64,000 nt of DNA from an uncultured Actinomycetota bacterium (GTDB lineage Bacteria; Actinomycetota; Actinomycetes; Mycobacteriales; Micromonosporaceae). Location of the stretch: assembly GCA_963805605.1 (NCBI GenBank), contig CAWDUX010000002.1:119672-183671 (forward strand). Reading direction: 5' to 3'. How positions within the stretch are numbered: the first letter of the stretch is position 1; each line of letters starts with the position of its first letter. The translations under genes and the position numbers were made by a program. This document shows positions 3,879 to 18,312 of this stretch, one piece after another. Below the pieces are notes generated by a model that was not told the DNA's origin, searched no databases, and worked only from the letters and a program-made list of their open reading frames with translations.

Positions 3879-4508
3879 GTGCCAGAGGAAGAACGTGTCA
3901 CCGTGCATATGTGGTTCGACCCGGCGTGCCCGTGGGCCTGGATCACCTCGCGTTGGCTGCTGGAGGTGGAGCAGGTGCGCCCGGTCCGGATCGAGTTCCG
4001 GGTGATGAGCCTCGGCGTACTCAACGAGGACAAGGACATTCCGGACGACTACCGGACCATGCTGTCCGGCACCTGGGGCGCGGTACGGGTCTGTATCGCC
4101 GCCCAACAGAAGTTCGGCATCGAGGTCCTGCGCGACCTGTACACCGCGCTGGGCACCCGCATCCATCTGCAGAAGGCGACGAAGGATCGGGACCTGCTGG
4201 TCGCTGCGCTCACCGAGGCCGGACTGCCCGAGGACCTGGCCGACGCGGCCGACTCGACGGAACTCGACCAGGAACTGCGCCGCAGCCACCACGAGGGGAT
4301 GGACCCGGTCGGCTACGAGGTCGGCACCCCGGTGATCCACGTACCGGGCCTGGACGGCGAGCTGATCGCGTTCTTCGGCCCCGTCGTCACCCCGGCGCCG
4401 AAGGGCGAGGCGGCCGGCCGGCTCTGGGACGGTGTACTCACCGTCGCCGGCACCGACGGCTTCTTCGAGCTGAAGCGGACCCGTACCCGCAGACCGATCT
4501 TCGACTGA
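3879..4508 (+). CDS. DsbA-like mycothiol-dependent oxidoreductase (Rv2466c family)
   Basis: WFDPACPWAWITSRW CxxW motif, VGTPVI, FFGPV, FFELKR; divergent from pepN; GTG after AAGGAG. Confidence 0.9.
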   Translation: MPEEERVTVHMWFDPACPWAWITSRWLLEVEQVRPVRIEFRVMSLGVLNEDKDIPDDYRTMLSGTWGAVRVCIAAQQKFGIEVLRDLYTALGTRIHLQKATKDRDLLVAALTEAGLPEDLADAADSTELDQELRRSHHEGMDPVGYEVGTPVIHVPGLDGELIAFFGPVVTPAPKGEAAGRLWDGVLTVAGTDGFFELKRTRTRRPIFD

Positions 4509-4661
4509 TCCGATCGTCGGGCGAGCCGATCTTCGACGATGCCGACGCACGCTGCCCCGGACCACTCTGCGGTCGTCCGGGGCAGCCGTGCCAGGGCGTG
4601 CGGCGGACCCGGTAGCGTCTGGGGGCGAGAGCTTCACCGCCGTGGACCGAGGAGAGCCGTA

Positions 4662-5924
4662 ATGCCGCACAGTGGACCGTCGCCGGTACATCCGATCGGT
4701 CGGGCCTGGATCTCCACCGGCGGTACCGGCGCGCAGAACTACGACGAGTTCGCCGACGACGCGGAGATCACCGAGATCGTGGCGGCGAACCCGGCGAGTG
4801 CTCTGGGCATCGAGATGCCGCACCGTACGCCTGAGGCGGTGGCGGCCGGACTGTCGTTCACCGATTCGCTGTCGGCAGCGGTGGCCCGTTTCGGGCAGCT
4901 GCGCGACGAGGGCCGCTACCAGCCGGCCGAGCAGGTCGTCGCGCTGTACCGGATCAGCGGCCCGGACGGGGTCGGCTTCGGCGTCTTCTGCATGGTCGAC
5001 ACCGACCAGATCTCCGCCAGCGCGGACGAGCCGGGTCTGGTGATCCGCAACGAGGACGTGTTCGTGGCCAAGGTACGGGAACGTACCGCGCTGGCCGCCG
5101 CGCTCGGTCACCTGCTCAGCCCCGTACTGCTGATGCAGACCGGCCCGGACGCCGCGCTGCACGCGGTGCTGACCGAGGTGCACGCCAGGCTCGGCGCACC
5201 GGCCGTCACCGACACCGACCCGCAGGGCCGCCGGCACGAGATCTGGGCGCTGGCCCCGGGGCCCGACCAGGACCGGGTACTGGCCGCTGCCGGCGGTGGC
5301 GAACTGATCGTCGCGGACGGCAACCACCGCACGCTGGCCGCGCAGGTCGGTGAGCTGCCCCGATTCCTGGCCGTGGTCACCAGCCCCGAGTCGGTCCGGA
5401 TCCAGCCCTATCACCGGCTGGTCACCGAGGTGGCGCTCAGCTCCGCGCCGGGTTCCGGCACGCCGGGCCAGCTGTCGGCCCTGCCGGAGCGGTTGCGCGC
5501 GGCGGGCGCCGAGGTCACCGAGCTGGCCGGCGCGGCCGAGGTGCCGACGGCCGGCACGGTGCATCTCTACACCGCCACCGGCGGCTACGCCGTACGGCTG
5601 CCCGTGCCGGCGGATGCCGGTGTGGTCGAGCGGCTGGACTACAGCGTGGTCGAGTCGGTGCTGTTCGGCCGTGTCCTCGCCATGGAGCCGGGGGACAAGC
5701 GGATCACCTACGTCGGCGGCGACTACCCGGCCAGCTGGCTGCGCGGCGAGGTGGACGCGGGTCGCGCCGACCTGGCGGTACTGATCGCGCCGGTCAGCGT
5801 CGAGGACTTCGTCGCGGTCAACCTGGCGCGGGAGAAAATGCCGCGCAAGAGCACCTGGTTCACCCCGAAGGCCCGTGGCGGCCTGGTCTGCGCCGAACTG
5901 GCTGCCGAACCGGCCGCCGGATAG
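4662..5924 (+). CDS. DUF1015 family protein
   Basis: Motifs IRNEDV, IADGNHR, IQPYHR, KMPRKSTWFTPK. Confidence 0.8.
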   Translation: MPHSGPSPVHPIGRAWISTGGTGAQNYDEFADDAEITEIVAANPASALGIEMPHRTPEAVAAGLSFTDSLSAAVARFGQLRDEGRYQPAEQVVALYRISGPDGVGFGVFCMVDTDQISASADEPGLVIRNEDVFVAKVRERTALAAALGHLLSPVLLMQTGPDAALHAVLTEVHARLGAPAVTDTDPQGRRHEIWALAPGPDQDRVLAAAGGGELIVADGNHRTLAAQVGELPRFLAVVTSPESVRIQPYHRLVTEVALSSAPGSGTPGQLSALPERLRAAGAEVTELAGAAEVPTAGTVHLYTATGGYAVRLPVPADAGVVERLDYSVVESVLFGRVLAMEPGDKRITYVGGDYPASWLRGEVDAGRADLAVLIAPVSVEDFVAVNLAREKMPRKSTWFTPKARGGLVCAELAAEPAAG

Positions 5925-5973
5925 TGCTGCCCGGGGGCCGACCCCCGATGATGTCGTCGGCCCCCATCGGCGG

Positions 5974-8375
5974 TCACTCGCTACGCAGCCCGTCGGGCCG
6001 CATCAGCCGCCACAGCGCCGGCATGCTCAGCGCCGTCACCAGCAGCACCACCGCGGCGCCGATGCCGATGATGCCGGCAGCGCTCTGCCAGTCGAACGAC
6101 ATCGGCTGGTGGGCCATCCGCAGCAGCGCAGCGCCCAGCAGTATGCCGGCCCCGATTGCCAGCAACAGACCGACGACCAGCGATATCGCCGTCTGCCAGA
6201 GAATCGACAGGGTCAGGGTCCGTCGACGTGCACCGAAGGCCGCCAGCACGGCCAGCGGACGTTTCCGGGTCCGGAGCTGCTCCAGGGTGTTGACCAGCAG
6301 GCTCGCTCCGATCAGCAGGAGTACTGCGATGGCGCCGGCCGACAGTCCGCGGCGGACGGTGCGGTAGTTCGCATCGAAGTGGCTGGTGGCGCCAGGCACC
6401 GTCACCGACATCAGTGGGGCGAGCCGCGCCGCGGCCGTCCGCACCTGGTCGACCGCGTCTTCTCGGCTGGGGTCGGTACGGATACGGAACTCCGGGGTCA
6501 GCGGAGCGGTCATCGCACTGTGCCGCTGCGCCGCCGGTGTCAGCAGCACCCCGGTGTACGGGACCTGGTTAGGGTCGTCACGAGGATTCGCGTGCCTGAT
6601 CCCGGCGGGGATCCGCCAGTTGAAGGACGGTGGGGCGGGTCGGGCGTAGCCCTGGATCGACACCATGGTGCCTGGTGTGAGCGGTCCGGTGTCGGGACCT
6701 GTCAGCGTGAATGCGTCGCCGTCCGCGCAGCGCCCGAGAATGGCGACGCCACGCAGCGCCCGAGAATGGCGACGCCACGCAGCGCAGCGCAACTGCCGAC
6801 GAGAATGCTGGCCGGCTGGTCGGTGCGGGGTTCCCGACCGCTGACGGTCAACGTCGCGTCGGCGAGTGTCCGTACGGACCGTACCCCGGGTGTTGACCGG
6901 AACCGTGCCGCCATCTGTTCGGCCCGCGTGCTGTCGACGGCACCCTCGTTCTGCACGATCAGCTGGTCGCGGTGCGGGTTCTGGTCCCTGGGGCCGGCGG
7001 CGACGTAGGTGTGCTGTATGCCAGCGAACAGGGTCTGCAACGCGATCGCTCCGGCGACCGCGACGGTGATACCGCTGACTGCCCGGGCCGCCGAGCCGCT
7101 GTCCAGTTGTAGTCGCCGTACCGCCAGCTGCCAGGCCACGCTGCCACCGCGCAACCGCCGTACGAGCGCTTCCACGCCCCACGGCAGCAGTGCTGCGACG
7201 CCGAACAGGAGAAGTACCACCCCGCCGGTGAGTTCGATGTCGACCAGGCTGCTGCCGGTGTTCGGTATCCCGCGCATCAGCGGCAGCAGTGCGGCCAGCC
7301 CGATCACCAGGGTCAGCAACCGCCACCACAGCCGACGGGTCCGTGCGGCGGCCTGGCGTACCACGCCCAACGGTTCGGCCACCACGCGACGCAACGCGAC
7401 GATCGTGACCACGACGGCGGCGGCGGGCAGGCCGAGCACTATCAGTAGCGCCAGTACGGGACTGGGCCGTACGTCGGAGGAGAAGGCGCTGATCCCGTCG
7501 AAGGTCACCAGTTCGACGAGCTGCCGCCCGGCCAGGAAGATCGCCGTGCCGACGATCAGACCGAGTATCGCACCGATCAGTGCCTCACCGGCCGCGATAC
7601 GCCGGGTCATCTGTCGGTCGGCGCCGACGAGACGTAGCGCGGCTTGTTGCCGGTCACGGGACTCGGCGCCGAACCGGACCGCGGCGCCGATGAACACCGC
7701 TACCGGTATCAGCAGCACCGATATGCCGACCAGCAGGATGACCGACAGTGTGGCGTCCAGCCCGGACCGGCCCCGCTGCGTACCGAACCGGGCCACGTGG
7801 AACGCCACAGGGTTGTCGCCGTCGAGCGTGTCCGAACCGAGGTAGTACCAGTACTCGTTCGGTCCGCCGAGCCCCGAATCGGCGATGGTGCCGGTGATGT
7901 GCTGGTACGGGATGCGTCTCCGCAGCAGCGTGCCGTCCGGTGAGTTCAGCAGGTCGAGCAGCTTGGGCGAGACCACCAGCTCGCCCGGTGCCGGCACCCT
8001 GGTCAGACCGGGCGGCACCACCGGATGTGCGCTCTCGGACTCGATCATGAAGCCGCTGACCGAGATGTCCCGGTAGTCGGTGGCGGCGTCGCGCATCAGT
8101 ACCGAATGCGCGGTTCTGTGCTCGGCGGGTATGTAGACCCGGGCATTGTTGCGGGCATGGCGTGCATCCAGGATGGCGGGCGCCGAGGCGGCGAGCAGCA
8201 GCATGCCGACGCCGAGCCCGACCCCGACGGCGGTCAGCGCCATCCGGGTCCAGGTGGACCGGCCACCTCGGGTGACCAACCGCACCCCGATGCCCAGATC
8301 GCGTACCCACCGGACGGCCCGGCCCGGGCCGGTGCCCGCCTCGACGTCGGGTCGGCTCTTGTGGTCGAGGCTCAT
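5974..8375 (-). pseudogene. FtsX-like ABC transporter permease broken by a 26-bp tandem duplication
   Basis: N-terminal part in ORF 6702-8375 and C-terminal part in ORF 5974-~6750; removing one 26-bp copy (6726-6751/6752-6777) gives one 792-codon frame with two FtsX TM blocks. Confidence 0.85.
6726..6785. repeat. 26-bp direct tandem repeat CGCAGCGCCCGAGAATGGCGACGCCA x2 plus partial CGCAGCGC
   Basis: Read directly from the sequence. Confidence 0.95.
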
Positions 8376-13585: not shown

Positions 13586-14407
13586 GTGCCGGAGGGGCAC
13601 ACGATCCACCGGCTGGCGGCCGAGCACCGTCGGTTGCTGCGCGGTCGGGTGGTGCGTGCGGACTCCCCGCAGGGGCGGTTCACGGCCGGCGCGGCGCTGC
13701 TCGACGGCGCGACCCTGACCGGTACCGACGCCTGGGGCAAGCACCTGTACCACCGCTACCGTACGGCCGGCGGCGAGCTGCTGCGGCTGCACGTACATCT
13801 CGGGCTGGCCGGCAAGTTCTTCACCGGCCGGGGATTCCTGCCGGCACCGACCGCCTCGGCCCGGCTGCGGCTGACCAGCGAGGATACCTGGCTGGAGCTG
13901 CGCGGACCGAACGCCTGCCAGCTGCACACCGCCGCCGACCAGAAGGCACTGTACGCCCGGCTGGGTGCCGATCCGCTGCGGCCGGGATCGGACGGATCGC
14001 TACCCGCGCAACGGATCCGTCGGTCCCGGGTGACGATAGGCCAGCTGTTGATGGACCAGCAGGTCATTTCCGGCGTCGGCAACATCTACCGGGCCGAGGT
14101 GCTGTTCCGGCACGGCGTCAGCCCCTACCGCCCGGGCTGCGAGCTGCCTGCGGAGGTCTGGGCGGCGATGTGGGCCGACCTGATTGCGCTGATGCGTCTC
14201 GGGGTACGTACCGGCCGAATCGACACCGTGCGGCCTGAACACGAGCCCGAGGCGATGGGCCGCCCTCCCCGGGTCGACCCGCACGGCGGTGAGGTGTATG
14301 TCTACCGCCGCGCCGGCATGCCCTGCCTGGTCTGCGGGACGGCGGTGGCCACCGCCCCGATGGCGGCGCGCACCGTGTTCTGGTGCCCCACCTGCCAGCC
14401 CCGCTGA
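13586..14407 (+). CDS. Fpg/Nei family DNA glycosylase (Rv2464c-like)
   Basis: N-terminal PEGHT, GKHL, H2TH LLMDQ..SGVGNIYRAE, C-terminal zinc finger CLVC...WCPTCQ. Confidence 0.95.
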   Translation: MPEGHTIHRLAAEHRRLLRGRVVRADSPQGRFTAGAALLDGATLTGTDAWGKHLYHRYRTAGGELLRLHVHLGLAGKFFTGRGFLPAPTASARLRLTSEDTWLELRGPNACQLHTAADQKALYARLGADPLRPGSDGSLPAQRIRRSRVTIGQLLMDQQVISGVGNIYRAEVLFRHGVSPYRPGCELPAEVWAAMWADLIALMRLGVRTGRIDTVRPEHEPEAMGRPPRVDPHGGEVYVYRRAGMPCLVCGTAVATAPMAARTVFWCPTCQPR

Positions 14408-14464: not shown

Positions 14465-15997
14465 TCAGAGGTCGCGGAACGTCTCGATCTTCGCGCCGAG
14501 CAGGTTGAGCCGGTCGGCCAGCTGCTCGTACCCGCGGTTGATCACGTACACGTTGCGCAGCACCGAGGTGCCCTTCGCGGCCAGCATCGCGATCAGTACG
14601 ACCACTGCGGGGCGCAGCGCCGGCGGGCAGATGACCTCGGTGCCCGACCAGCGGGTCGGGCCCTCCACGTACACCCGGTGCGGGTCGAGCAGGGTGACCC
14701 GGGCGCCGAGCTTGGTCAGTTCGGTGAGATAGACGGCCCGGTTCTCGTACACCCAGTCGTGGATCAGGGTCTGGCCCTGCGCGGTCGCGGCGATCAGCGC
14801 GAAGAACGGCAGGTTGTCGATGTTGAGGCCGGGGAACGGCATCGGGTGGATCTTGTCCAGCGGGGCGTGCAGCTTCGAGGGTCGGATGGTCAGGTCGGTC
14901 AGCCGGGTGCGCCCGTTCGCCGCCGGGTATTCCGGGGTGCGGTCGTGGTCGAGCCCCATCTCCTCCAGCAGCGCCAGTTCGATCTCCAGGAATTCGATCG
15001 GCACCCGCCGTACGGTGATCTCCGACGAGGTCACCAGCGCCGCGGCGATCAGGCTCATCGCCTCGATCGGGTCCTCGGACGGCGAGTAGTCGATGTCGCG
15101 GTCGATGACCGGTACACCGTGCACCGTCAGCGTGGTGGTGCCGATCCCGTCGATCTTGACGCCGAGTTCGGTGAGGTAGAAGCAGACGTCCTGCACCATG
15201 TAGTTGGGGCTGGCGTTGCGAATGATGGTGACGCCGTCCCGGCGGGCCGCGGCCATCAGCGCATTCTCGGTGACGGTGTCGCCGCGTTCGGTCAGTACGA
15301 CCGGCCGCTGCGGTGCCACGCTGCGGTCCACCTCGGCGTGGTAGGCGCCGCCGGTGGCCTTGACCTCCAGGCCGAACGGACGTAGCGCGGTCATGTGCGG
15401 CTCGACGGTACGGCTGCCCAGGTCGCATCCGCCGGCGTAGGGCAGCTCGAAGCGCTCGTGGTCGTGCATCAGCGGCGCCATGAACATGATGATGCTGCGG
15501 GTTCGGCGGGCCGCCGCGTCGTCCATGGCGGACAGGTTCAGCGTCGCCGGTGGCACGATCTCCAGGTCGTTGTGCTCGTTGAGCCAACGGGTCCGCACGC
15601 CGATGGAGTGCAGTACCTCCAGGATGCGGTTGACCTCCTCGATCCGCGCGACCCGGCGCAGCGTGGTCCGGCCCTTGTTGAGCAGGGCCGCGCACAGCAG
15701 CCCGACGCCGGCGTTCTTGCTGGTCTTGACGTCGATGCTGCCGGAGAGCTGCTGTCCGCCGACGACCCGCAGATGCATCGGCCCGGAGTGGCCGAGGGAG
15801 ACGATCTCGGAGTCCAGCGCGTCGCTGATCCGGTTGAGCATGTCCAGGCTGAGGTTCTGTCCACCCTGCTCGATCCGGTGCACGGCGCTCTGGCTGGTGC
15901 CGAGCGCGGTCGCCAGCTGGGACTGTGTCCAGCCGCGGTGCTTGCGGGAGTCGCGGATGAGCCGGCCGATGCGCTGGAGATACTGGTCATCAGGCAT
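14465..15997 (-). CDS. murA: UDP-N-acetylglucosamine 1-carboxyvinyltransferase with N-terminal XRE HTH
   Basis: First ~70 aa form an XRE HTH (GWTQSQLATALGTSQSAVHRIEQG); then KNA, GGCDLGSR (Cys retained), VTENALMAA, PFPG, INRGYE. Confidence 0.93.
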   Translation of the reverse strand: MPDDQYLQRIGRLIRDSRKHRGWTQSQLATALGTSQSAVHRIEQGGQNLSLDMLNRISDALDSEIVSLGHSGPMHLRVVGGQQLSGSIDVKTSKNAGVGLLCAALLNKGRTTLRRVARIEEVNRILEVLHSIGVRTRWLNEHNDLEIVPPATLNLSAMDDAAARRTRSIIMFMAPLMHDHERFELPYAGGCDLGSRTVEPHMTALRPFGLEVKATGGAYHAEVDRSVAPQRPVVLTERGDTVTENALMAAARRDGVTIIRNASPNYMVQDVCFYLTELGVKIDGIGTTTLTVHGVPVIDRDIDYSPSEDPIEAMSLIAAALVTSSEITVRRVPIEFLEIELALLEEMGLDHDRTPEYPAANGRTRLTDLTIRPSKLHAPLDKIHPMPFPGLNIDNLPFFALIAATAQGQTLIHDWVYENRAVYLTELTKLGARVTLLDPHRVYVEGPTRWSGTEVICPPALRPAVVVLIAMLAAKGTSVLRNVYVINRGYEQLADRLNLLGAKIETFRDL

Positions 15998-16008
15998 GAG
16001 CGGACTCT

Positions 16009-16024
16009 ATCTCATAGATGAGAT
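16009..16024. promoter_or_regulatory. Putative operator ATCTCAT-AG-ATGAGAT upstream of HTH-murA
   Basis: Perfect 7-2-7 AT-rich inverted repeat 11 bp before the murA ATG. Confidence 0.6.
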
Positions 16025-16116
16025 TTCACAACTTGGAAGACGTGAAACCGACCAGGTGTGATGGGGATCTAGGTGCTCACTACGATGCGTGTCATGAGGT
16101 TCACCAGGGGGCATCG

Positions 16117-16995
16117 ATGAGTGGGGAACGAGCCGTACGCCTCGACGCACCGGCACTGCTGGCGCGCATCACGGCCGCAACCGGTGTCGAATTTACCTAC
16201 CTGGGACCGTGCCCCGGCGGGGAGGTGGGGGCGGCGTACGTACGTTGGCCCGACGGCCGTCCGGCCGTGTTGACCTGGTGCCCGGGCACCAGACATGCCG
16301 AGGCGGTGCAGCGCAGCGCCGAGATCCTCGCGGTGGCCCGTGCGCACGGACTGCCGGTCCCAGAGTACCAGCTAGTGGTGCCGCTGCCGGACGCCGTGGC
16401 GCTGGTGCAGGAGCGACTCCCCGGTTCGGTACCCGCCGAACTGGACGCCACCCTGCTGACCGCGATGCTGGCCTGCCACGACCGTTTCGCCGGGCTGCTG
16501 GCCGAGCGACGCGATGTGCCGCCGGTGGAGCTGTACCTGCGCCGCAGCGGGCCGGGTTTCTGTCTGCACGAGCCGCTGGCCGGCCACTCGCCGCGTACCG
16601 TCCGGTTGCTCGACTGGGTACGGGAGGTGGGCCGCGCCACAGCGCCGACGATGTCCGGCGACGACCTGGTGCATTGCGACTTCCACCGGCAGAACGTGCT
16701 GGTCGGCCCGGACACCACCGGGCTCGGCCGGGTCATCACCGGCATCATCGACTGGGACGGGGTGGGCCGCGGCGACCGCCGATTCGACCTGGTCACCTTG
16801 CGCTTCGACATCCCGCCGGACCGGCCGGACCTGGCCGAGCGACTGGACGCCGAACTCGACGCGCGGCTCACCGCCGAGGAACTGCGCCCGTACTGGGCCA
16901 GCATGGCGCTGCGGATGGTCGACTGGACGATCCGGCACTACCCGCCGGAGGTCGTCGACCGCTACCTGACGTTGGCGGAGAGCCGGATGGACTGA
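16117..16995 (+). CDS. Aminoglycoside phosphotransferase family protein
   Basis: GGEVGAAYV, HCDFHRQNVLV, IIDWD motifs. Confidence 0.85.
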   Translation: MSGERAVRLDAPALLARITAATGVEFTYLGPCPGGEVGAAYVRWPDGRPAVLTWCPGTRHAEAVQRSAEILAVARAHGLPVPEYQLVVPLPDAVALVQERLPGSVPAELDATLLTAMLACHDRFAGLLAERRDVPPVELYLRRSGPGFCLHEPLAGHSPRTVRLLDWVREVGRATAPTMSGDDLVHCDFHRQNVLVGPDTTGLGRVITGIIDWDGVGRGDRRFDLVTLRFDIPPDRPDLAERLDAELDARLTAEELRPYWASMALRMVDWTIRHYPPEVVDRYLTLAESRMD

Positions 16996-17037: not shown

Positions 17038-18312
17038 GTGACCACAGCCGACGCAGCGAACAGAACCAGTCGGGGCGGGGCGGTACTTGTCGCAGCGCTG
17101 GTGGTCGACGCCGTAGGCAACGGGTTGTTCATGCCGCTGTCGCTGGTCTTCTTCACCAAGCTCACCGACGTGCCGTTGGCCCTGCTCGGCGTGCTGATCA
17201 GCGTCGGCAACCTGATCACCCTGCCGATTCCGGTGTGGGCCGGCACGCTGGCCGACCGGTTCGGCGCGCTGCCCCTGGTGATCGGCGCACAACTGCTGCA
17301 GGCCGTCGGCTTCTTCGGCTACGCCTGGGTACACGGGCCGGTCGGGATCTTCATCACAGTGACCCTCACCGCAGTGGGCGTGCGGTTCTTCTGGTCGGCC
17401 ATCTTCACCGCCATCGCCGACTACACCGACACCAACCCGTCGACGCGCAGCAAGGACACCTGGTACGCCTGGTCCAACATGGCCCGTACCGGCGGCCTGG
17501 GGGCCGGCGGCCTGGTGACCGGCGCGGCCATCGCGGGCGGCAGCGCCGCCGGCTACCGGGCGACCGCCTTCGCCGCCGCAGGCTGCTTCGCCCTCGCGGC
17601 GCTGGCCATCGCGATCTTCGTACGGGTGCCCCGGCTGGTGCACGAGCACCCGGAGACCGGGCCGCGCGGCTACGGCATGCTGCTGCGCGACCGGCCGTTC
17701 CTCGGCCTGATCGGGGTGAACACGGTGTACGCGCTGTCGAGCATGATGCTCGGGCTGGCACTGCCGACCGTGGTGCTGACCGGGCTGCACGACCCGGCCT
17801 GGCTCAGTTCCGGCCTGCTGGTCGGTAACACGGTGCTGATCTCGGCGCTCGGGGCGCCGGTGATCCGGCGGGTGGCGGGGTACCGGCGGACCAGGCTGGT
17901 GATGGCCGCCGCCGGACTGTGGACGTTGTGGTGCCTGCTGTTCGCCACCCTCAGCCCCGGGCACCTGATCTGGACGGTGGTGCTGATGGTGGCCGCCACG
18001 CTGATGTTCACCCTGGCTGAGACGCTGCACGCGCCGGTCTCCGCCGCACTGTCGGCCGCTGCGGCGCCCGCGTCGGCGCGTGGCCGCTACCTGGCCACGT
18101 TCCAGTACTCGTTCACCATCGCCGGGATCATCGCGCCGACGTTCTTCACCACCCTGTTCGCCATCCACCGGTCGGTGCCGTGGCTGGTGCTGGGCGCACT
18201 CGACGCGGCCAGCATCGGTGTCATGCTGCTGCTGGAACGCACCCTGCCCACCGCCGCGCTGCGCGAACGGCCCCGATCATCGCCGGCTGCCGAGGAGCAG
18301 GTGGCGTCCTGA
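17038..18312 (+). CDS. MFS transporter
   Basis: About 12 hydrophobic helices; GTLADRFG motif A; ARGRY in the C-terminal half. Confidence 0.92.
   Translation: MTTADAANRTSRGGAVLVAALVVDAVGNGLFMPLSLVFFTKLTDVPLALLGVLISVGNLITLPIPVWAGTLADRFGALPLVIGAQLLQAVGFFGYAWVHGPVGIFITVTLTAVGVRFFWSAIFTAIADYTDTNPSTRSKDTWYAWSNMARTGGLGAGGLVTGAAIAGGSAAGYRATAFAAAGCFALAALAIAIFVRVPRLVHEHPETGPRGYGMLLRDRPFLGLIGVNTVYALSSMMLGLALPTVVLTGLHDPAWLSSGLLVGNTVLISALGAPVIRRVAGYRRTRLVMAAAGLWTLWCLLFATLSPGHLIWTVVLMVAATLMFTLAETLHAPVSAALSAAAAPASARGRYLATFQYSFTIAGIIAPTFFTTLFAIHRSVPWLVLGALDAASIGVMLLLERTLPTAALRERPRSSPAAEEQVAS

Follow-up and report, generated by a model that had tools for sequence, protein, structure and literature searches.

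An XRE helix-turn-helix–MurA fusion, probably of the MurA2 family, with a conserved dyad in its own leaderless promoter: a predicted self-repressing enzyme

Trigger enzymes such as BirA, PutA and NadR are single polypeptides that combine catalysis with DNA binding, and their operators lie at genes of their own pathway. For MurA, the enzyme that starts cell-wall synthesis, other controls have been described: ClpCP/ReoM proteolysis in Firmicutes, activation by CwlM in mycobacteria, and a dormant complex with UDP-N-acetylmuramic acid (UDP-MurNAc). To our knowledge, the known controls of MurA are post-translational. Here we analyse a gene in a 64,000-nucleotide (nt) stretch of DNA from an uncultured Actinomycetota bacterium of the Micromonosporaceae (GenBank assembly GCA_963805605.1, contig CAWDUX010000002.1, positions 119,672–183,671; the whole stretch is referred to as the window). 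The gene encodes a MurA-like enolpyruvyl transferase with an N-terminal helix-turn-helix (HTH) domain of the XRE type. We favour, at a probability of about 0.7, the reading that its product belongs to a MurA2 family of self-repressing MurAs, that is, working enzymes whose HTH binds an 18-bp dyad in the promoter of their own gene.

The fusion very probably belongs to the same orthologous family as MurA2 of Streptomyces (SCO5998; sven5810 / vnz_28735), an assignment made by gene order and not from the SCO5998 sequence. In a genus with 7–10-Mb genomes, the fusion is present in all 10 genomes sampled (77–78% identity), and in genome G054 it is divergent to aconitase, which is how SCO5998 (MurA2) and SCO5999 are arranged in S. 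coelicolor (PMC12161575). G054, G306 and G282 each encode the fusion and one full-scoring canonical MurA, with one extra match below the cut-off in G306. The murA2 gene (sven5810 / vnz_28735) is a BldM–WhiI target of late sporulation (PMC4125116), and its over-expression gave no phenotype (PMC11005364). MurA2 is treated in these papers only as a second MurA and a BldM–WhiI target (PMC4125116, PMC11005364), and in a literature search on MurA2, SCO5998, MurA-like regulators and MurA trigger enzymes we found the HTH, the operator and autoregulation undescribed.

An earlier annotation of the window from its letters alone (the sequence-only reading) had proposed an HTH–MurA fusion with an intact HTH, and this fusion is real: the gene is an open frame of 510 residues in a stop-to-stop frame of 513 codons (Table 1). 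Pfam HTH_3 (PF01381) matches residues 14–65 with 48.5 bits against a gathering cut-off of 23, which places the domain in the XRE/Cro-C1 family, and the recognition helix TSQSAVHRIE lies at about residues 34–43. The AlphaFold2 model of the fusion has a mean predicted local distance difference test score (pLDDT) of 92.4; its HTH consists of four helices (residues 4–20, 25–32, 36–43 and 51–61; pLDDT 88–92). The remainder of the protein matches Pfam EPSP_synthase over the full length of the profile (residues 80–497, 153 bits) and the NCBIfam MurA subfamily NF006873 (312.4 bits, cut-off 297), and its best MurA match in the PDB has an E-value of 3e-49. The modelled enzyme domain has the two-lobed inside-out alpha/beta barrel of enolpyruvyl transferases and resembles solved MurAs in Foldseek with target-normalised template modelling (TM) scores of 0.88–0.94 (0.93 to E. 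coli MurA, 1UAE). PDB entries 3SWD and 3SU9 are also among the matches, and all matched MurA chains are too short for such an N-terminal domain. Enzyme and DNA-binding domain are thus combined in one polypeptide, as in trigger enzymes. The nearest proteins are from Actinocatenispora (92–95% identity), which makes this genus the probable origin of the window.

A palindrome had been reported 11 bp upstream of the gene, and ATCTCATAGATGAGAT is indeed located at 16009–16024, 11 nt from the ATG at 15995–15997. Its position stands, but the 7+2+7 arrangement first ascribed to it does not, since the conserved unit is 7+4+7 (TATCTCA-N4-TGAGATA). Within the window alone, the palindrome is unremarkable (one match at up to two mismatches, 0.52 expected), and its significance comes from the comparison between loci rather than from window statistics. 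On the gene strand, the promoter reads TTGTGA-AATCTCATCTATGAGA-TAGAGT-CCGCTC-ATG, with the last two bases of the operator serving as the first two of the −10 hexamer, which is followed by 6 nt and then the ATG. The TAG inside the −10 hexamer is an in-frame stop three codons upstream of the ATG; the start codon is therefore fixed, and there is no space for a leader or a Shine-Dalgarno sequence. The sequence-only reading had placed a leaderless or short-leader promoter at the palindrome; this geometry supports the leaderless form, and the predicted operator occupies the whole −35/−10 spacer and part of the −10 hexamer. A consensus promoter and terminator scan of 15900–16250 returned no match, its 9/12 threshold being too strict for TTGTGA/TAGAGT, and a general repeat search missed the 7-nt arms of the operator.

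Directly abutting the operator, and overlapping the −35-like hexamer, we noticed an inverted repeat (TTTCAC-N12-GTGAAA, 16024–16047). It is not conserved in Actinocatenispora comari and has probably arisen by chance or serves a regulator peculiar to the strain.

We compared the upstream region with those of 80 orthologous loci (71–92% identity to the window fusion; 81 sequences including the window) from many actinobacterial orders; the groups represented are Pseudonocardiaceae, Kribbella, Jiangella, Actinopolymorpha, Kitasatospora, Streptacidiphilus, Dermatophilaceae, Intrasporangiaceae and others. All 81 upstream regions match TATCTCA-N4-TGAGATA in at least 10 of 14 positions, at the same position directly before the start codon. 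Absence of the palindrome upstream of other HTH-murA genes would have refuted the sequence-only reading, and the answer is clear: it is present at 80 of 80 loci. When the regions are aligned on the site, the information content is limited to the 18 bp and one T four bases later, which is the final T of the −10 hexamer; the 34 positions upstream of the site carry about 0–0.4 bits each. The −10 pattern TAnnnT begins at operator position 17 across the loci, an in-frame ATG or GTG follows 6–8 nt after it in 78 of 79 loci, and a weak TTG is seen at the expected −35 place, 16 nt upstream. The left half-site, which lies outside the −10 hexamer, mirrors the right one, with A2, T5, C6 and A7 each at 95% or more. 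No neighbouring gene is conserved across the 80 loci (the largest cluster, excluding the gene itself and overlapping frames, covers 20). Since the neighbours vary while the site persists, the site travels with the fusion gene and not with a neighbour.

The fusion is patchily distributed: of 401 genomes sampled across the phylum, 16 encode it, whereas none of nine from the same order and not the single one from the same family does. Relatives are encoded on at least 587 stretches of the species-genome collection. One ortholog with 67% identity (L090; G009:C11, about 470–500) has an AT-rich variant of the operator, TAGCTCATATCTGATATA, with a −10 hexamer TATTTT, which indicates that the site can drift widely while TCA-N4-TGA stays.

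A position weight matrix built from the orthologous sites was scanned over this 5.9-Mb genome. It reveals one strong site, with 29.6 bits at window position 16008, and a runner-up with 13.6 bits inside the ATP synthase beta gene. The weaker matches (12.5–13.6 bits) lie in coding DNA or are single half-sites, and we rejected them as regulon targets. G054, G306, G282 and G328 (3.6–9.2 Mb) each contain a single exact copy of the 14-bp core TCTCA-N4-TGAGA, always at the fusion gene and 19–32 nt before the match to the ortholog. With no second site in the genome, the output of the system would be enzyme activity and not a regulon.

HTH and operator also appear to change together. The recognition helix TSQSAVxRIE is nearly invariant in the 81 sequences, and Thr at x (residue 40) accompanies the symmetric variant TAACTCA..TGAGTTA in seven of seven cases from two lineages. 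In the G230 ortholog (64% identity), the helix has diverged to MTEQDIEQIE, the palindrome is absent, and a TACGAT −10 hexamer lies seven nt before the ATG. The palindrome is likewise missing upstream of two relatives of the enzyme domain that are not fused to an HTH. The G230 locus (L092; G230:C1:1261300–1263900) is also unusual in that its fusion is the sole MurA homologue found in a genome rated 100% complete and its frame is broken by a frameshift near residue 388. Frameshift, diverged helix and lost operator reflect either a fault in the assembly or ongoing remodelling of the gene in this lineage.

Residues K22, N23, R91, C115, R120, H125, D231, D305, R331, R371 and R397 (E. coli MurA numbering) are invariant in all 81 sequences; among them are the MurA residues for catalysis and phosphoenolpyruvate (PEP) binding K22, C115 (Asp in some MurAs), R120, D305, R371 and R397. 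The sequence-only reading had noted that the cysteine targeted by fosfomycin is kept, which is correct, as Cys191 aligns with Cys115 of E. coli MurA. This genome encodes two AroA proteins, two canonical MurAs (L002 and L004, with 508 and 414 bits against the NCBIfam murA equivalog TIGR01072, cut-off 392.7) and the one fusion. A search of 30 fusion-carrying genomes with a single hidden Markov model (HMM) for the MurA subfamily identified the fusion as the only match in nine: G328 (a single contig, rated 100% complete), G339, G125 and six genomes labelled Dermatophilus congolensis, 'Rothia sp. ARF10', Knoellia subterranea, Knoellia remsis, Piscicoccus intestinalis and Mobilicoccus massiliensis. 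Actinobacteria require MurA. The fusion, as the sole MurA found, must therefore be a working enzyme in those nine lineages, and we infer that the window protein likewise catalyses enolpyruvyl transfer from PEP to UDP-N-acetylglucosamine (UDP-GlcNAc). A regulator that acts only on itself needs another output, and catalysis would be that output. No clear trend between operator match count and sole-MurA status was seen by eye.

In the mechanism we propose, a MurA-type enolpyruvyl transferase with an XRE HTH tethered to its N terminus by a floppy 12-residue linker would bind TATCTCA-N4-TGAGATA as a dimer. The occupied dyad, which covers the spacer and overlaps the −10 hexamer, would block RNA polymerase and thus establish negative autoregulation of the enzyme level. 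Of the autoregulation suggested by the sequence-only reading, the fusion, the palindrome in its own promoter and the conservation in 80 loci are confirmed; that the fusion binds this DNA and represses is the best reading by comparison.

A dyad operator implies a dimer, and modelling points the same way. Two copies of residues 1–500 scored 0.47 for pairing, whereas the best of three controls scored 0.00. Of 30 proteins solved as one-chain pairs, 20 reach this mark, as does 1 of 23 single-chain proteins; these counts are only rough because our own alignment was used in the dimer model. At least 84% of contacts are common to the runs, and the partner pLDDT is at least 83. The confident interface is situated in the MurA fold (residues 199, 234–238, 260–264, 287–289, 338–346, 380–390, 413–415 and 437–441) and adjoins loops lining the sugar-nucleotide cleft. 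The fusion is thus predicted to dimerise. One may speculate that occupancy of the active site by UDP-GlcNAc, UDP-MurNAc or a PEP adduct alters DNA binding, and the tight binding of UDP-MurNAc to MurA is a precedent for product sensing by this fold. A wider proposal, which we regard as possible but doubtful, is that metabolites gate the protein as a true trigger enzyme. The cleft would close on UDP-GlcNAc, on UDP-MurNAc or on the Cys–PEP adduct and so shift the dimer geometry and with it operator binding, and the same module, having lost catalysis, would have become a dedicated regulator of murA-murB and Mur ligase genes in low-GC uncultured bacteria.

Fused proteins of such low-GC uncultured bacteria, with 32–39% identity to the window protein, have lost most of the PEP-binding and catalytic residues (K22, R91, C115, R120, R371, R397). 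The five at 34–39% identity (P0144, P0148, P0153, P0154 and P0162) retain D231, D305 and an S/G-D/N-T/S loop; in the most diverged pair (P0223 and P0253), nearly all of D231, D305 and the loop residues are gone. The genes for P0144, P0148 and P0162 are flanked by a divergent operon on one side and by a Mur ligase or ddl gene downstream. Each divergent operon includes a real murA, accompanied twice by murB and once by a Mur ligase gene. At two loci of these degenerate relatives (L096 and L100), ATATCA-TATA-TGATAT lies in the stretch from a TTGACA −35 box to the start codon; at the third, TATAAC-ATAT-ATGCTATA precedes the start codon with no recognisable −35 box. These operator-bearing relatives show 35–39% identity, and their sites are about one base per half-site off the actinobacterial operator. 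P0133 and P0153 have no clear dyad of this type upstream. The near-identical operators of distant relatives indicate that the HTH–operator pair is old. In the low-GC branch, the MurA fold seems to have turned into a sensor for a peptidoglycan-precursor regulon, which supports, by analogy, the idea that this fold can gate DNA binding; for the window protein itself, such gating is a prediction. At L096, the degenerate HTH::MurA-like regulator gene is followed by one (4493–6082) whose product joins a D-Ala-D-Ala ligase to a Peptidase_C39_2 domain, an unusual pairing.

The gene downstream of the fusion is convergent with it, for a DNA glycosylase, and the fusion is thus monocistronic in the window. 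On the other side lie divergent genes for an APH-family phosphotransferase and a major facilitator superfamily (MFS) transporter, possibly a small resistance or efflux pair. The sequence-only reading had noted that the palindrome also faces these genes, but a role there is not supported: the neighbourhood is shared only with the congener A. comari, and about 90 nt separate the operator from the likely APH start (16117) downstream of it, which places the operator outside the likely APH promoter. The window and A. comari have two intergenic blocks in common at about 16040–16097, on the gene strand CTCATGACACG.ATCGTA and CCATCACA, and the TACGAT within them could be the −10 hexamer of the divergent APH-like gene. 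The best-scoring canonical MurA of this genome, L002 (G000:C2:540669–541907), has Asp at the Cys115 position (PGGDAIGSR). The second, L004 (C2:198068–199342, about 14 kb past the window end), keeps the Cys, and its frame extends about 65 residues upstream.

Table 1. Positions of the fusion gene, its promoter elements and neighbouring genes in the window
Feature	Position	Strand	Basis or remark
18-bp dyad operator (predicted)	16008..16025	.	gene strand AATCTCA-TCTA-TGAGATA; family consensus TATCTCA-YATR-TGAGATA
−10 hexamer TAGAGT (family pattern TAnnnT)	16004..16009	-	sixth-position T in 99% of loci
−35-like hexamer TTGTGA	16026..16031	-	directly upstream of the operator; spacer 16 nt; weakly conserved (TTG)
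ATG start codon = inferred transcription start	15995..15997	-	leaderless, no Shine-Dalgarno sequence; inferred from geometry
Coding sequence of the 510-residue XRE-HTH::MurA-like fusion	14465..15997 (stop codon included)	-	open frame
XRE/Cro-C1-type HTH domain, residues 1–65	15803..15997	-	Pfam HTH_3 and modelled helices
Flexible linker between HTH and enzyme fold, residues 62–73	15779..15814	-	AlphaFold2 pLDDT below 50 at residues 67–70
MurA-like enolpyruvyl transferase domain, residues 74–510	14468..15778	-	NCBIfam, PDB match and fold
Codon of Cys191, counterpart of E. coli MurA Cys115 (fosfomycin target)	15425..15427	-	alignment; Cys in 81/81 family members
APH-family phosphotransferase	16117-16995	+	Pfam APH, 56 bits; weak likeness to APH(7'')-Ia
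MFS transporter	17038-18312	+	weak likeness to MdtH
Fpg/Nei-type DNA glycosylase	13586-14407	+	H2TH, Fapy_DNA_glyco and zinc-finger domains

Several observations count against a self-repressing, catalytically active MurA. We found no published binding, repression or enzyme assay for any family member. The fusion scores 294.5 bits against TIGR01072, below the cut-off that both canonical MurAs of this genome exceed. Throughout the family, Asp stands in place of V163, Asn in place of M306 and Pro or Ala in place of D369, so that the Asp369 of MurA is missing, and the sugar-nucleotide loop is G-D-T instead of the S162-V163-G164 type of MurA. A search of 1.8 billion cluster representatives and the tree built from it show that this D163/N306/non-D369 signature marks a separate clade, which comprises all fused forms and some unfused proteins of 440–460 residues (44–55% identity) and is distinct from canonical MurA, including the E. 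coli enzyme and the two MurAs of this genome. The absence of other MurAs from the nine genomes rests on one HMM, and six of the nine come with no completeness figure in these searches. The residues of the modelled dimer interface are also conserved in canonical MurAs, and the pass of the dimer model may only mirror likeness to solved MurA oligomers and not be specific to the fusion; the HTH domains lie outside the confident interface. Finally, the right half-site overlaps the −10 hexamer, and part of its conservation could reflect promoter constraint.

The loss of Asp369 might be taken to mean that the MurA-like domain is a ligand-binding pseudoenzyme and the protein a sensor-only transcription factor that controls other genes through weaker sites. 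The presence of two other MurAs in this genome would fit, as would the distant fused relatives that have lost K22, R91, C115, R120, R371 and R397 and adjoin real murA-murB genes. All other catalytic residues are nevertheless invariant in the 81 sequences, a search of nine genomes turned up no MurA homologue besides the fusion, and no second operator was found in five genomes, which would leave a regulator of itself alone without output. We therefore consider a pseudoenzyme unlikely.

That the fusion binds the dyad is argued from comparison, and the dyad might instead be bound by another protein or be a mere promoter feature, with the fused HTH acting elsewhere or not at all. The overlap with the −10 hexamer leaves room for a promoter-derived conservation of the right half-site, but this does not account for the mirrored left half-site; moreover, the site accompanies the gene in changing neighbourhoods and is the only strong one in each genome scanned. 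G230 has lost it together with the usual recognition helix, and unfused relatives lack it, which makes such an explanation unlikely as well. A site between −35 and −10, next to a weak −35 hexamer, is also where MerR-type activators bind, and the fusion might activate from the spacer instead of repressing. MerR promoters, however, have over-long spacers of 19–20 nt, whereas the spacer here is 16 nt and the site overlaps the −10 hexamer; XRE-family proteins at such a position are classically repressors, and we judge activation to be quite improbable. The retained Cys115 and the divergent APH-like kinase and MFS transporter genes of the window and A. comari might suggest a fosfomycin-sensing switch that controls this pair. 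This appears very improbable, the least credible of these alternatives, given that the neighbours are not conserved beyond the genus and that the operator lies outside the likely APH promoter. In addition, MurAs with Asp115, such as the mycobacterial enzyme, are of the fosfomycin-insensitive type, and since the main MurA of this genome (L002) already has Asp115, a rationale of fosfomycin defence is weakened here.

A self-repressing MurA2-family enzyme would be a new variant among trigger enzymes; MurA2 itself is known, and the HTH, the operator and the autoregulation went unmentioned in the papers searched. It shares with BirA, PutA and NadR the enzyme and DNA-binding domain in one chain and a predicted operator at a gene of its own pathway, but its only target found is its own promoter, and control by ligands is speculative. 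The fusion has the fold of canonical MurAs (E. coli MurA, 1UAE; L002 and L004) and keeps residues K22, N23, R91, C115, R120, D305, R371 and R397; it differs in its identity of only about 26–30%, its D163/N306/no-D369 clade and its N-terminal HTH. The architecture and the operator position before the start codon recur in P0144, P0148 and P0162, whereas these proteins have lost the catalytic residues and look like pathway regulators amid mur genes. Like ClpCP/ReoM proteolysis, CwlM activation and the UDP-MurNAc complex, the fusion would limit flux at the same pathway step, but while those controls are post-translational, this one would be transcriptional and built into the enzyme.

If the proposed autoregulation is true, an enzyme with its own repressor domain represents a new and very compact way of setting MurA levels. 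The single-site leaderless promoter–operator pair would provide a ready-made orthogonal repressor–operator part, and the degenerate relatives illustrate how an enzyme can evolve into a sensor for its pathway. The family very probably includes the Streptomyces developmental gene murA2, and several Dermatophilaceae and Intrasporangiaceae, with genomes labelled Dermatophilus, Knoellia, Piscicoccus and Mobilicoccus among them, apparently have no MurA other than the fusion.

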